Of a DNA stretch of 39,903 nucleotides, positions 1,828 through 6,932 are shown piece after piece; the first letter of the stretch is position 1, and each line of letters opens with the position of its first letter. A program made the translations under genes and the position numbers. Source of the stretch: Luminiphilus sp. (lineage in GTDB: Bacteria; Pseudomonadota; Gammaproteobacteria; Pseudomonadales; Halieaceae); the NCBI GenBank assembly GCA_965658485.1, contig CBFHSJ010000004.1, forward strand, positions 1 through 39,903, in the 5' to 3' direction. The notes under the pieces were generated by a model. The model ran no database searches and had not been told where the DNA came from. It saw only the letters and a program-made list of their open reading frames with translations.

Positions 1828-2627
1828 ACAGCTGTCGCGCACTGCTTCGCTACCTTGTTGCCGGGCTGACGCTTTTAGGCAGCGGAGCCTGCCCAGCCGA
1901 AGAGGGTGAGTTGCCGCATGCCACCGTCCCCACCTACGGCTATGAGGTGGTGTCGCGCGTGCGCTTTGATCGCGCAAATTTCACTCAGGGCCTCGAAATT
2001 TACGACGGTCGCCTCTACGTCAGCTCGGGCCTCTACGGTGAATCCAAGATCAGAGTGTATGACTTTCCCGCCATGGAAGAGATGCAGTCCGTGTCCATAG
2101 ACCCCAGAATTTTCGCCGAGGGCCTCACGGTGATCGACAATCGGCTGGTGGTGCTGTCCTGGCGCGAACGCGTGATGCTGGTCTACTCCCTGCCCGATTT
2201 GTCGTTGTTGGGCCAAAGCACCCTGCCAGGACAGGGTTGGGGTGCCACCCACTCCGGCTCGACGCTGTGGTTCAGCGATGGCTCACACTACCTGTACTCC
2301 GCCGATATGAGTGACGATGGCAAACTGAACCGGCTACCGGTCGTGCTGGAGGGCAGGCCGCTGCGCAATTTGAACGAACTCGAGTGGGTGAATGGGGAGA
2401 TCTGGGCTAATGTATGGCAGACCGATGAGATCGCGCGCATCGACCCCATTACGGGTAAGGTAGTGGGCCTGATTGACCTCTCTGGCCTACTGCCTGAGGA
2501 AGACCGTCTGCGGGATACGGATGTGCTCAATGGCATCGCCATTGATCCGGTCACCCAGAACATTTGGGTAACCGGCAAACGCTGGCCCTGGCTTTTTGAG
2601 ATTACACTGGAAAGTCCCGCGGACTGA
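1824..2627 (+). CDS. Glutaminyl-peptide cyclotransferase (beta-propeller-type glutaminyl cyclase), exported
   Basis: Motifs FTQGL, SSGLYG, FAEG, GWG, SDGS, LNELE, ANVWQ, VLNGIA, TGKRWP. Hydrophobic N-terminal signal. GTGA overlap with the mnmC stop. Confidence 0.9.
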   Translation: MNSCRALLRYLVAGLTLLGSGACPAEEGELPHATVPTYGYEVVSRVRFDRANFTQGLEIYDGRLYVSSGLYGESKIRVYDFPAMEEMQSVSIDPRIFAEGLTVIDNRLVVLSWRERVMLVYSLPDLSLLGQSTLPGQGWGATHSGSTLWFSDGSHYLYSADMSDDGKLNRLPVVLEGRPLRNLNELEWVNGEIWANVWQTDEIARIDPITGKVVGLIDLSGLLPEEDRLRDTDVLNGIAIDPVTQNIWVTGKRWPWLFEITLESPAD

Positions 2628-2676
2628 CCGCATATCAACCCCTGACAACACCCACACAGCTAAACTGGAACCAAAC

Positions 2677-5625
2677 ATGACAGATGCCTCAACTCGCCCC
2701 GCCGCCGCACAAATCCCCAATACGTTTGTGCTGAAGCGGGCAGTGCCGATCCCCAGCCTGAATCTCACTGTCGAGGAGTACGCGCACCCCGGCACCGGGG
2801 CCCAGCACCTCCATCTGAGCAGCGACTCCTCCGAGAATGTGTTCATGGTCGCTCTGCGCACGGTGCCCGAGGACTCCACGGGCGTAGCGCACATTCTCGA
2901 GCACACCGCGCTGTGTGGCAGTGAGCGCTACCCGGTTCGTGACCCTTTCTTCATGATGCTGCGGCGCTCGCTCAATACGTTTATGAACGCATTCACCAGC
3001 TCGGATTGGACTGCCTACCCTTTCGCCACCCAAAACCGAAAGGATTTCGGCAACCTGCTAGATGTTTATCTCGATGCCGTGTTCTTTTCGCGACTGGACC
3101 CGCTCGACTTCGCACAGGAAGGACACCGAGTAGAGTTTGAGAACGACGACAGTGCGCAACCGCTGGTATTCAAGGGTGTCGTATTCAACGAGATGAAGGG
3201 AGCCATGTCCTCCACGCCGTCGGTCCTGTGGGACCGGTTATGCCATGAGCTATTTCCTTCCAACACCTATCACTTCAACAGCGGCGGCGACCCGGAGCAC
3301 ATCCCTGATTTAAGTTATCAGGAGCTGAGGGACTTTTACGCCGAGCATTACCACCCCAGCAACGCGATATTTCTCACCTTTGGCGATATCAGCGCCGAGG
3401 CACACCAGCACGTTTTTGAGGCGCAGGTCCTGCAGCGTTTCGGCGCGCTGGAGCGGAAAATCGAGGTCGCGCTCGAAACCCCCTTTAATGCTCCGGTGCA
3501 AGCAACACACCCCTATGCGGTGGATGCGGAAGAAGGCTCGGAGAAGAAAACGCACCTGGTTATGGGCTGGAAGCTCGGCGAGAGCGCCGACCTGACCGCC
3601 ATGCTGGAGGCGCAACTGGTGTCCTCGGTGTTGATGGAGAACAGCGCCTCGCCGCTGATGCACTACCTGGAGACTACCGATCGGGGCGCCGCACCCTCTC
3701 CGCTGTGCGGGCTGGAAGAGTCGATGCGGGAGATGGTGTTCTGCTGTGGTATCGAAGGCAGCGAGGCGGAGCACGCCGAGGCCTTTGAGGCCGAGGTGCT
3801 GGCCTGTATCGAACAGGTCGCCACCGACGGTGTCGATGAAGAGAAGGTCGACGCGATCCTGCGGCAGATCGAGCTACACCAAAGAGAAGTGAGCGGCGAC
3901 GGAATGCCTTACGGACTCAACCTGATGTTGAGAGCCCTTGGCGCCGCCACACACTATGGTGATGCGGTGGCAGCACTGGATCTCGAGCCGGTGATTGCCA
4001 CGCTTCGTGAACGGGTCAAAGACCGCGATTATCTGCCGGGACTCATTCGCAGTCTGTTGCTCGACAACCCCCACCGGGTCAGACTGGTCGTGACGCCGGA
4101 CATCGGCCTCTCGGCCAGCCGTGAGTCCGCTGAGGCGGCCCGTCTCTTAGAGATGAGGGAAAATCTCAGCAGCGAGCGCACAGCGGAGATTCTCGACCTC
4201 GCCGAGCGGCTCAGGGCGCGACAGAGCCAGAAAGATGACCCAGACGTGCTGCCGAGAGTGGCACTCTCGGATATTCCAGCAGAGACCCCATCCCCCGAGC
4301 CTGTTATTGAGTCTGGCACATCAACCCATTACCGCTACACCGCGGGCACCAACGGGCTCGTTTATCAGCAGTGGGTGAGCCCGCTACCGGCGCTGACGGC
4401 AACCGAGCAGCAGCATTTGCCGCTGGTGACGGCATTGATGCCCGAGGTTGGGGTCGGTGAACTCAACTATCTTGACACCCAGGAGCGGCACTCAGCGACA
4501 GTGGGCTCACTCAGCGTGTCGGTCAGCAGCCGCGCGCACCGCGACAGCGAGCAAAGCAGCGACAGCTTCTTTGTGCTGTCTTCCAAGGCCCTCGCTGATC
4601 GCATTCAACCGCAGCTGGAACTGATGTCGGATACGCTTCAAGCCGCGCGTTTCGATGAATGCTCGCGCATCCGGGATCTGGTCAGCCAAATGCGCGCGCG
4701 GCGCGATCAGGGCATCACCGGCAGCGGCCATGCGCTGGCCATGACCGCAGCCTGTGCCGGTATGAGCCCCCTCGCCAAGCGGGGCCACCAGCAAGGAGGA
4801 CTCGAGGGTATCCGCACGCTGCGCGCGCTGGATGACGTACTCAAAGATGAAGGTGAGCTGGACGCGTTCGCTCATTCGCTGGGCGCCATCCACCAGAAGC
4901 TGGCGGGTGCGGGGGCACCGCTTTTGTGCACCGTCACCGATGACCCGAACATTCAGCCTGCGAGCGAGGCTGCTTCTAAGAGCGCAGGGGCCCTGCCAAC
5001 GACGTCCTATGCCAGCATTACGCTGGAACCGGTCCGAGCCGCCATTCAAGAGATTTGGGTCACCAACACCCAGGTCAATTTCTGCGCCAAGGCCTACCCG
5101 ACAGTCCCCTCCGGACACCCCGATGCGCCGACGCTGTCGGTGCTCGCCGCTTTCCTGCGCAATGGGTTTTTGCATCGCACCATCAGGGAACAAGGTGGTG
5201 CTTATGGCGGGGGCGCCAGCCACGACCCGAATATCGCAGCATTTCGCTTCTTCTCCTACCGAGACCCACGCTTAGTCGAAACGCTGGAGGACTTCGATGC
5301 CTCCATCGCCTGGCTGCTGGAGACACAGCATGAGCAGTTGGCGCTGGAAGAGGCGATTCTCAGTGTGATGGCCAGCCTCGATAAGCCGGGATCCCCGGCC
5401 GGCGAGGCAAAGCGGGACTTCCACGAGAGACTGTTCGGACGCACCGCAGAGCACCGCCGCATCTTGCGCGCCGGCATTGTGAGCACCACCCTTGATGACC
5501 TCCGCCGCGTGACCGAAACCTACCTGAAGCCCGAGCTTGCCAGCACGGCGGTTATCACCCACACCGCGGGTGCGGACATCGTGGCAAAGCGCCAGTTACC
5601 CCTCACCCGGCAGGACCTTCTCTAA
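2677..5625 (+). CDS. M16C (presequence protease / insulinase family) zinc metallopeptidase
   Basis: Inverted zinc motif HILEH in DSTGVAHILEHTALCGSERYPVRDPFF. Also FMNAFT, GVVFNEMKG, IREQGGAYGG, SYRDP. Start placed at ATG 2677. Confidence 0.92.
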   Translation: MTDASTRPAAAQIPNTFVLKRAVPIPSLNLTVEEYAHPGTGAQHLHLSSDSSENVFMVALRTVPEDSTGVAHILEHTALCGSERYPVRDPFFMMLRRSLNTFMNAFTSSDWTAYPFATQNRKDFGNLLDVYLDAVFFSRLDPLDFAQEGHRVEFENDDSAQPLVFKGVVFNEMKGAMSSTPSVLWDRLCHELFPSNTYHFNSGGDPEHIPDLSYQELRDFYAEHYHPSNAIFLTFGDISAEAHQHVFEAQVLQRFGALERKIEVALETPFNAPVQATHPYAVDAEEGSEKKTHLVMGWKLGESADLTAMLEAQLVSSVLMENSASPLMHYLETTDRGAAPSPLCGLEESMREMVFCCGIEGSEAEHAEAFEAEVLACIEQVATDGVDEEKVDAILRQIELHQREVSGDGMPYGLNLMLRALGAATHYGDAVAALDLEPVIATLRERVKDRDYLPGLIRSLLLDNPHRVRLVVTPDIGLSASRESAEAARLLEMRENLSSERTAEILDLAERLRARQSQKDDPDVLPRVALSDIPAETPSPEPVIESGTSTHYRYTAGTNGLVYQQWVSPLPALTATEQQHLPLVTALMPEVGVGELNYLDTQERHSATVGSLSVSVSSRAHRDSEQSSDSFFVLSSKALADRIQPQLELMSDTLQAARFDECSRIRDLVSQMRARRDQGITGSGHALAMTAACAGMSPLAKRGHQQGGLEGIRTLRALDDVLKDEGELDAFAHSLGAIHQKLAGAGAPLLCTVTDDPNIQPASEAASKSAGALPTTSYASITLEPVRAAIQEIWVTNTQVNFCAKAYPTVPSGHPDAPTLSVLAAFLRNGFLHRTIREQGGAYGGGASHDPNIAAFRFFSYRDPRLVETLEDFDASIAWLLETQHEQLALEEAILSVMASLDKPGSPAGEAKRDFHERLFGRTAEHRRILRAGIVSTTLDDLRRVTETYLKPELASTAVITHTAGADIVAKRQLPLTRQDLL

Positions 5626-6193
5626 GCGAGAGCAGGTAACCCTCGCCACGAGGTGCCCAGGCGGCCAGAAAACCCTCCCGGGTCCAGATCAGCCGGCCCT
5701 GTGACGGATCGGCCAGGGCAACGTGACGGCCAGCCAGCCCGGTTAACACACTGAAGTGAGGACCCGTGGGTAGCTGCAGGTAGACCAGAACCGGCAACCT
5801 GAGGGTCGACAACGATCTGGCACTGAGCCTGAGCACCTGCGGACTGGCACCGGCATCCTGTGCCAACCGGGCCAATTGCTCAAGACTGAAACCCTCGCCC
5901 AGAATCCTCTTGGTTTCCGCTGCGCTGACACCGAGGCGCGCAATGAGCCCCGTTAGATCGAAATCAGCACCCCTGTGTGCAGCCATCAACGTGGCGAGCG
6001 CAGCAGGCCCGCAATCATAGTCTCCAGATTGGCGCACAATTTCCCGCTCGAAAATGCGCACGGGTTGCGACCACGCTGTATCGCTGCCCAGCGATACCCC
6101 GGTGAGCGCAACGGCGAAGCCCACACTGAGACTTACCCGCCCCGCCCACCGAAGTGGAGCAGATCTAGCTCTCGTCCGAATACCGCCGGGCAC
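5603..6193 (-). CDS. Stand-alone C39-family cysteine peptidase with N-terminal signal/anchor
   Basis: RQSGDYDCGPAALATLM (oxyanion Gln and catalytic Cys), GPHFSVL (His), LADPSQG (Asp), F...W.G tail. Hydrophobic N-terminal segment. No ABC domains fused. Confidence 0.88.
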   Translation of the reverse strand: MPGGIRTRARSAPLRWAGRVSLSVGFAVALTGVSLGSDTAWSQPVRIFEREIVRQSGDYDCGPAALATLMAAHRGADFDLTGLIARLGVSAAETKRILGEGFSLEQLARLAQDAGASPQVLRLSARSLSTLRLPVLVYLQLPTGPHFSVLTGLAGRHVALADPSQGRLIWTREGFLAAWAPRGEGYLLSLREGPAG

Positions 6194-6428
6194 GACGCTC
6201 TAGCCAGATGACCAGGAGCACCGCAACACTAAAGTAAGTAGTGAGCGCCACACCCAGGCTGATCAGTCCTCCGGCGGCCACCGTAGCGGCGGCCATCAAC
6301 AGCGCCCAAAAGAGCAGCACCGGGATGATACGCAACGCAAAATATTGCTCACGCACACGCCAACGGGCATCGCGGGCTAGCTTCTCCCGCAGCTGCTCGA
6401 CCGGGTTATCCCCTTTTAGTCCCGCCAC
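6165..6428 (-). CDS. Small membrane protein (87 aa, ~2 TM), possible immunity or accessory factor
   Basis: GTG start preceded by a strong GGAGGG SD just after the upstream stop. Long hydrophobic hairpin flanked by Arg-rich ends. Lies between the precursor and C39 genes. Confidence 0.7.
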   Translation of the reverse strand: MAGLKGDNPVEQLREKLARDARWRVREQYFALRIIPVLLFWALLMAAATVAAGGLISLGVALTTYFSVAVLLVIWLERRARRYSDES

Positions 6429-6443
6429 TGTTGAGCCCTCCCA

Positions 6444-6746
6444 TTAAGGCAGTTTGTAGGCGGGGCTGGGCTCCGCGTAATGCGGCACGTAGACCCCCCA
6501 GTAGAAGCCCGCCAGCGCCAGATCAAGCGTGGCCACACCCACGATGAACGGCAGCACTCTGCCGCGCAGTTGCGATGCCTCAAGAAACGACAACGCGAAT
6601 GACTGCTCGTCGGGAAGGGGTGATGGCGCCACCCGCACCGTGGCGGTCTCTAAACTCAGCGGCGGGATGCGAAGTGGGGAAGCAGCCTGAGTGAGCGGTG
6701 CAGATACGACACCACACAGGCCTAGTACGAAAATCCATTTTCTCAT
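6444..6746 (-). CDS. Secreted peptide precursor (Sec signal + double-glycine-like leader + hydrophobic 37-aa core)
   Basis: AGGAG SD 8 nt before ATG. Signal MRKWIFVLGLCGVVSAPLTQA. LSFLEASQLRGR matches LSxxELxxIxGG spacing. Adjacent C39 peptidase. Confidence 0.75.
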   Translation of the reverse strand: MRKWIFVLGLCGVVSAPLTQAASPLRIPPLSLETATVRVAPSPLPDEQSFALSFLEASQLRGRVLPFIVGVATLDLALAGFYWGVYVPHYAEPSPAYKLP

Positions 6747-6857
6747 GTTGCTGGCTCCTAGTTATTCAAAGTCGTAGCGAATTGAGACTCGTTCATTACC
6801 GATCGCGGCAGAAATACTGTCGTGACCGTCTCAGTCCGTACTTTGCCTATTGGACTA

Positions 6858-6887
6858 TTGCCCCACCACGTCTTGGGCGAGCACAAT
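6858..6887 (+). promoter_or_regulatory. Possible sigma70 promoter for the TauD-family gene
   Basis: TTGCCC-18 nt-CACAAT, about 45 nt upstream of the start. Imperfect consensus. Confidence 0.3.
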
Positions 6888-6932
6888 CCCCCCACGCCCC
6901 GATGAGGTCGCTGAAGGACAGGAGAGAATGCA

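Follow-up and report, generated by a model that had tools for sequence, protein, structure and literature searches.

A reduced, probably periplasmic C39-peptidase cassette with a conserved hydrophobic peptide precursor in Luminiphilus

The window examined here is a stretch of 39,903 nucleotides from Luminiphilus sp. (Halieaceae), and its minus strand carries three closely packed, co-oriented open reading frames (ORFs): a precursor gene, a gene for a small protein with two transmembrane segments (the 2-TM protein), and a gene for a C39 cysteine peptidase. The initial annotation, made from the sequence alone, had described such a trio in this order, and this was borne out, with the coordinates and the minus strand as given below.

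6755..6759, minus strand: AGGAG, a Shine-Dalgarno-like sequence 8 nt 5′ of the precursor ATG, read from the sequence
6444..6746, minus strand: precursor of 100 aa with an ATG start, composed of signal, pro-region, double-glycine-type leader, and core
6684..6746, minus strand: predicted Sec signal peptide, residues 1–21, with a basic n-region, a hydrophobic h-region, and a small-residue c-region, also present in homologues
6594..6683, minus strand: variable pro-region, residues 22–51, a low-confidence coil in the model
6558..6593, minus strand: double-glycine-type leader, residues 52–63 (positions −12 to −1), predicted helical, with a C-terminal Arg-Gly-Arg
6447..6557, minus strand: predicted mature core of 37 aa, residues 64–100, a hydrophobic helix with the invariant Asp75 and an aromatic Trp-Gly-x-Tyr-x-Pro belt
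6165..6428, minus strand: 2-TM protein of 87 aa, a charged N-terminal helix followed by two hydrophobic segments, immunity-like by position
5603..6193, minus strand: stand-alone C39 cysteine peptidase of 196 aa with a hydrophobic N-terminus and the residues Q55, C61, H146, and D162
6747..6932, no strand: spacer of 186 bp between the precursor and a divergent tauD-like gene, the site of a FapF/NapF-like barrel gene in other Halieaceae genera

Residues L52, S53, E56, L60, G62, and R63 of the window precursor occupy leader positions −12, −11, −8, −4, −2, and −1, just as they had been placed in the initial annotation, and with the predicted cut behind R63 the core comprises 37 aa and has a net charge of −1. 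In the structure model, a coil pro-region is followed by a single helix at residues 54–90 (predicted local distance difference test 81–95 over residues 61–90). The hydrophobicity of the core is marginal and compatible with full translocation before activation. The peptidase belongs to Peptidase_C39 (PF03412; 59 bits against a cut-off of 22), its hydrophobic stretch lies near residues 17–35, and it is the sole C39 match in this 92%-complete genome. The claims that it keeps its Gln, Cys, His, and Asp behind a hydrophobic N-terminus, and that no ATP-binding cassette (ABC) transporter is fused or nearby, also held, none being found among the 39 window ORFs scanned. The C39 gene and the 2-TM gene share a 29-nt overlap. 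The signals of the precursor and the peptidase were judged from hydropathy and homologues; a lipoprotein signal was rejected for the precursor, since a lipobox-like motif occurs in a few homologues and is not conserved. A relaxed leader pattern was matched by one of the 209 signal-like ORFs of the genome, the window precursor itself, and by 0.055% of 20,000 shuffles, a specificity that is an upper bound because the pattern was composed after the family had been seen.

When the window precursor was used as a single query, 29 of 36 genomes of the same genus yielded homologues, as against none of 24 genomes of other families. A profile of 32 sequences gave a match in 72 of 200 Halieaceae genomes (12 of 40 genera), with one match per genome except for one fragmented genome with two, and in 0 of 340 genomes from other families of the order. 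Within Luminiphilus, the precursor occurred in 29/36 and 19/20 sampled genomes of 1.3–3.6 Mb. The family comprises 100 clusters at 50% identity in a library of 1.84 billion proteins; searches of Pfam, NCBIfam, PDB sequences, and the ESM Atlas returned no named family for it, and no publication on it was found in the open-access literature. By these profile matches, the precursor constitutes a bounded, unnamed family. Two other associations were considered and rejected. One is a link to phototrophy: several cassette-bearing genera lack reaction-centre genes wholly or mostly (genus g27, 0/3; g59, none listed; g62, two genomes), and within the 200 Halieaceae genomes, genus g38 has reaction-centre genes in 10/11 genomes and the cassette in 0/11. 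The other is an origin from a phage or an inovirus coat: no relative of the precursor was found in viral contigs, and no barrel in a phage collection.

To describe the family, 93 loci from 92 genomes were tabulated (all 53 non-Luminiphilus genomes that the profile had matched, 38 Luminiphilus genomes matched by the single query or the profile, and G252, a Luminiphilus genome that joined the table because the barrel search described below had found it). The leader site was located by a rule requiring Gly or Ala at −2, with the Asp and the Gly of the core as anchors. Gly was found at −2 in 92/93 precursors and a hydrophobic residue at −12 in 91/93, and an unforced alignment without the site rule likewise placed R61 and G62 at at least 90%. 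Of the 39 Luminiphilus precursors, 13 have Gly at −1 and hence a genuine Gly-Gly, and the −1 residue is otherwise mostly Arg, Lys, or Glu; a Gly-Gly or Gly-Ala ending occurs in 16/39 Luminiphilus and 3/54 other precursors, and the natural −1 variants of the family are Gly, Ala, Arg, Lys, Glu, and Gln. In all 93 precursors, a hydrophobic core centred on Asp comes before an aromatic-Gly-x-Tyr-x-Pro belt; Asp and Gly are kept in 93 (as anchors, with zero failures), Tyr in 91, and Pro in 87. The net charge ranges from −5 to +2 among the 39 Luminiphilus cores. A CxxC-type pair ends 50 of the 54 non-Luminiphilus cores and none of the 39 Luminiphilus cores. The precursors of genus g59 (L070 and others) have a long acidic tail before the terminal cysteine pair. 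One Luminiphilus-type lineage (L237, L241, and L243–L245; among P0053–P0123) shows, where the precursor begins, a tandem array of 12-bp units that varies in length and whose unit resembles a Shine-Dalgarno sequence plus an in-frame ATG; the called proteins are 103–139 aa long, mostly in 4-residue steps, and the array could tune translation or extend the basic n-region.

The linkage of leader-bearing homologues to C39 genes, anticipated in the initial annotation, was verified: a C39 gene lies 3′ of the precursor in 90/93 genome loci, the three misses ending within 430 nt of the precursor, and in all 66 metagenome loci that reach 900 nt or more downstream. A search of the genome contigs with the C39 alone as the query yielded four loci. 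In an alignment of 85 C39 sequences, from which five short or N-containing ones had been dropped, all 85 (38/38 for Luminiphilus) retain the catalytic Cys, His, and Asp, and 80 retain the Gln; the five Gln losses are in Luminiphilus genomes that also have no 2-TM gene. A hydrophobic stretch precedes the C39 domain in 83 of the 85 scored. In an unrooted tree, the C39s cluster by genus, the Luminiphilus branches are longer, and the Halieaceae C39s lie apart from the NapP-like plus Fap-like ones; being unrooted, the tree does not rank NapP and FapD by closeness. Most peptidases of genus g48, whose substrates mostly carry Glu at −1, have Arg two residues before the catalytic His, and this residue is never Arg or Lys where the −1 residue is Arg or Lys. 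This pattern, drawn from few independent lineages, is only suggestive of charge matching between the two positions.

The initial annotation had called the cassette transporter-less. This proved to hold in Luminiphilus only: in other genera, a co-oriented gene for a protein of about 260–300 aa lies 5′ of the precursor in 52/54 loci, the remaining two being at contig ends. The model of this protein has about 12 long strands and FapF as its top structural match (Foldseek E 3e-13, TM 0.68). Such a barrel was found in only 1 of 61 Luminiphilus genomes (G252) and in one of the 44 metagenome loci that extend 1 kb upstream. It was not found in the genome of the window, nor in the single-contig Luminiphilus genomes G004 and G012, and four of five genomes tested had no PF13557 substitute for it. 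Because of this contrast between 52/54 loci and 1/61 genomes, the transporter-less state is, on the distribution of the genes, derived, and the predicted ancestral form had a FapF-fold barrel as its first gene. When a tree was built from PreP, the gene next to the cassette, G252 with its barrel came out as sister to the other 35 Luminiphilus genomes (SH-aLRT 89, long branch). The simplest reading is that the cassette was inherited vertically and that the barrel was lost early. In P0301, a 244-aa protein found without context, an N-terminal half barrel continues in frame into the pro-leader and core of a precursor; it may be a deletion intermediate of the barrel loss, or a misassembly.

The barrel profile was matched in 19 of 400 genomes across the class, a tally that includes one unpublished genome, which enters no other result, and several of the strong loci carry a C39 and precursors with a Sec signal and a leader but with unrelated, variable cores. 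On an Acinetobacter plasmid (L130:5069-9165), a barrel, a C39, and three precursors lie near transposases; the precursors have near-identical signals and leaders but differ in their cores, and a small ORF follows each of them, so that the arrangement is a putative polymorphic toxin-immunity-like array. In Neisseria gonorrhoeae, the ORF behind a full-length NapF-type barrel (L129:7898-8437) has a signal, a canonical-type leader ending in Gly-Ala, and a hydrophobic first helix, and small ORFs come after it. This ORF is a candidate C39 substrate, which the sections of the main text of PMC11798529 consulted do not take up.

Selection was estimated from six disjoint Luminiphilus pairs and 16 pairs from other genera. 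The ratios of nonsynonymous to synonymous substitution rates (dN/dS) in Luminiphilus were 0.04 for the core, 0.08 for the leader, 0.20 for the pro-region, 0.24 for the C39, 0.26 for the signal, and 0.32 for the 2-TM gene, and the core was again the lowest (0.14) in the other genera. The expectation that the precursor is conserved is therefore supported both by these ratios and by its presence in 72 of the 200 genomes. The 2-TM family is divergent, with a mean column identity of 27%, and no named family was returned for it from Pfam, NCBIfam, or the ESM Atlas; in the g59 loci (L070 and others), the protein is unlike the main family. Its gene occupies the position expected of a cognate immunity gene, yet it is missing at 8 of the 38 Luminiphilus loci that carry the C39, and in four genomes with this loss, one of them a single contig, it was not found elsewhere (the control genome gave E 9e-15). 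The genomes without it still have cores of the conserved type. A complex prediction for the 2-TM protein with the core scored 0.00, a value for which controls were not folded. Whether the 2-TM protein is an immunity-derived restraint that has become dispensable seems to us evenly balanced.

Among known systems, the nap island of Neisseria consists of a periplasmic C39 (NapP), a barrel (NapF), the peptides NapA-C, and NapI (Poncin et al. 2025, PMC11798529), and it is reported to promote autolysis. Like NapP, the window C39 is a signal-bearing, stand-alone peptidase, and a gonococcal C39, with 36.5% identity (E 7e-13), is its best match among the plasmid-collection records. The Halieaceae barrel aligns with the gonococcal NapF-type barrel (144 bits for the profile against the full-length protein; hhalign 99.8%, 27% identity), the N-terminus of which is similar to that of NapF in the version given by S1 Fig of PMC11798529. 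The gonococcal ORF behind the barrel has the same layout of signal, leader, and first helix (hhalign 90.8%), and the proposed route, a periplasmic cut followed by exit through the barrel, is shared. There are also differences. Luminiphilus has no barrel in 60/61 genomes, although the genera of its relatives have it; it has one conserved, neutral-to-acidic peptide with a Sec-type signal, whereas nap has several cationic, phase-variable peptides; and its cassette is vertical, with a host-like GC content of 0.61 and genus-wise clustering, whereas nap is a horizontally acquired, low-GC island. In the text of PMC11798529 cited here, signal peptides are noted only for NapF and NapP, and a holin is proposed for the passage through the inner membrane.

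The Fap system of Pseudomonas combines the C39 peptidase FapD with the barrel FapF, and FapD needs its catalytic Cys and works in the periplasm (Rouse et al. 2017, PMC5557850). The comparison with FapD, drawn in the initial annotation, is fair: both C39s are stand-alone, the window C39 is predicted to be periplasmic like FapD, and FapF is the top match of the relatives' barrel model. FapD is also, with FilB, the nearest NCBIfam model to the window C39, which reaches 52 bits against its cut-off of 330. In Luminiphilus, in contrast, there are no amyloid subunits or Asn/Gln-rich repeats and no barrel, and a single candidate substrate is at hand whose leader is of the canonical type, while the target of FapD is left unresolved in the text cited (PMC5557850). 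The putative Fil pilus of Acinetobacter (FilB, NF050078; FilC, NF050079) resembles the cassette in pairing an exported C39 with a barrel partner. It differs in that the window C39 scores 40 bits against the FilB cut-off of 475 and no pilin-sized subunit is present; no FilC-like gene was found in the window, and the relatives' barrels score at most 13.6 bits against 630. With class II microcins and their peptidase-containing ABC transporters (PCATs), the cassette shares the leader pattern, a hydrophobic core below 10 kDa, and an adjacent small membrane protein. The window C39, however, is a stand-alone protein of 196 aa that is not ABC-fused, no adaptor gene is present, and the leader of the window precursor is internal, behind a Sec-type signal, and ends in Gly-Arg, with mostly Arg, Lys, or Glu at −1 in the family. 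The cassette thus appears to work like the Nap and Fap systems and yet, having no barrel, no cationic or amyloid cargo, and no island, fails the defining features of each; it is not a PCAT microcin.

As far as can be judged from sequence, the cassette is a vertically inherited, reduced Nap/Fap-type periplasmic-C39 system and not a new kind, and two-step processing of its precursor is likely. The precursor would enter the periplasm by Sec, a route that we consider very likely, and would lose its signal near Ala21. The periplasmic C39 would then recognise the leader helix and cut after Gly62-Arg63; cleavage at the leader is, in our view, quite likely. Until this cut, the pro-leader would keep the helix from inserting or aggregating, and the released 37-residue hydrophobic helix would insert in a membrane. 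Insertion or the formation of small oligomers around the invariant mid-helix Asp is somewhat favoured. Where relatives have the barrel, it would serve as the exit of the peptide, a route also proposed for the Naps (PMC11798529), and in Luminiphilus, which has no barrel, the peptide would probably stay in and act on the envelope of its producer. No dedicated exit is left there, yet the selection on the leader and the core is undiminished, and action in the producer's envelope is therefore favoured. For the whole of this reading, namely, a reduced cassette with two-step processing and a peptide acting in the producer's own envelope, we put the chances at about even.

Several observations weigh against it. 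The window precursor has Ala at −7, a mismatch that the initial annotation had passed over, where 53 of 54 non-Luminiphilus precursors have Leu or Met, and its Arg at −1 departs from the rule for cytoplasmic C39s, which need Gly or Ala there, although periplasmic C39s may use another sequence (PMC5557850). A type II secretin was found in 5/5 genomes, so that the peptide could still exit by type II secretion or in vesicles, and the core could instead be a stop-transfer anchor. In the C39 tree, G252 groups with one Luminiphilus subclade; given this placement and the moderate support for G252 at the root, more than one barrel loss is possible. Finally, the longer C39 branches of Luminiphilus, together with the five losses of the oxyanion Gln, could mean decay. 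A decaying remnant, in which the barrel, then the 2-TM gene, and then the catalytic Gln were lost stepwise, accords with the losses observed and with these branches; it is nevertheless the least probable of the explanations weighed here, as the core and the C39 keep dN/dS values of 0.04 and 0.24 after the barrel loss, the precursor persists in 29/36 and 19/20 Luminiphilus genomes, and Cys, His, and Asp are intact in 38/38.

The initial annotation had proposed a membrane-active bacteriocin-like or signalling peptide, and both roles are weakened by the present results. A microcin-like bacteriocin would undergo the same two-step processing, be released by type II secretion or in vesicles, and form pores in competitors, the 2-TM protein serving as immunity. 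The core is indeed a hydrophobic helix, the secretin is available in all five genomes, and in barrel-plus-C39 loci of other proteobacteria, such as L130 and L129, the cores are variable and often have their own small ORF, like toxin-immunity pairs. The Luminiphilus core, on the other hand, is nearly invariant family-wide and under tighter constraint than the 2-TM gene, and the cassette is single-copy and occupies one chromosomal site in 67/93 loci, so that kin would all be alike. An invariant core that is not cationic, vertical inheritance, and a 2-TM gene that eight of 38 loci lack, without its being found elsewhere in four such genomes, make a plain bacteriocin role a poor fit; the related Naps, moreover, have no detectable antibacterial activity in the text cited (PMC11798529). 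We regard this role as unlikely. A structural role, in which the core, freed of its leader, polymerises as the subunit of a surface coat or of a Fap/Fil-like fibre, would suit the strong conservation, the nearest C39 models (FapD and FilB both come from fibre systems), and the CxxC-type pair of the non-Luminiphilus cores; microcins can also form amyloid fibres (PMC13188072). The core, however, has no Asn/Gln-rich repeats, is predicted to be a single helix, and has no match among solved chains, and the export barrel needed by such fibres is gone in Luminiphilus while the core is still conserved. This makes a structural subunit rather improbable. Double-glycine leaders are also found on peptide pheromones, and of the 20 wide loci inspected for a receptor, two (L072 and L077) have a two-component pair downstream, among the matches listed. 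No receptor or sensor gene is consistently linked in these 20 loci, among the matches listed, the core is hydrophobic and varies barely between genera, and the dedicated exit pore has been lost; a diffusible signal is accordingly very improbable.

The cassette is flanked by a convergent gene for an M16C PreP-like peptidase (2596-5625), the end of which overlaps the C39 stop by 23 nt, and by the divergent TauD-like gene, and its GC content of 0.61–0.63 is like that of the neighbouring genes. PreP adjoins the cassette in 67/93 loci, yet in 0/16 loci of genus g62, and the neighbourhood is therefore likely to be positional, not functional. A gene for an exported glutaminyl cyclase (PF05096; 1824-2627) lies two genes from the cassette; Gln is often the first residue after the signal, both in the relatives' barrel and in the C39 in its predicted mature form, and this synteny is probably incidental. 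Positions 12136-39893 are ordinary chromosome, with the isc cluster, ndk-rlmN-TPR-ispG-hisS-bamB-der, purEK, isocitrate lyase, a TonB receptor with cobO, and MscS. No promoter or terminator above chance was found at the cassette. Among four metatranscriptome assemblies, two were even over the region including the divergent spacer, as DNA would be, and one has a low-depth contig covering the precursor only.

An extension of the preferred reading, in which the peptide acts in the producer's envelope, is that the cassette has become a domesticated housekeeping device, a protease-switched, Asp-gated membrane microprotein that is activated by two periplasmic cuts and works in the cell's own envelope with neither pore nor immunity gene. 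We offer this only tentatively, as a doubtful possibility. If true, an abundant marine group would have a class of membrane microproteins, activated by C39, that has not been described, and periplasmic C39s would be shown to cut Gly-Arg, Gly-Lys, and Gly-Glu sites. The substrate and the specificity of periplasmic C39s have been left open, the target of FapD being unclear (PMC5557850) and the processing by NapP only modelled (PMC11798529) in the texts cited. The cassette is a minimal natural pair, with one peptidase, one conserved substrate, and a predicted site; with the natural −1 variants of the family, it therefore makes this question directly testable in E. coli. The ORFs with a Sec signal and a leader beside NapF-type barrels are candidate substrates of the same class of C39. 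The lineages without the barrel or the 2-TM gene serve as deletions made by nature, in which processing is set apart from export and immunity. What was once an export system of the bacteriocin type may have come to act on the envelope of the cell itself, and these natural losses suggest that, in this widespread marine bacterium, a bacteriocin-like peptide has a function directed at its own producer.

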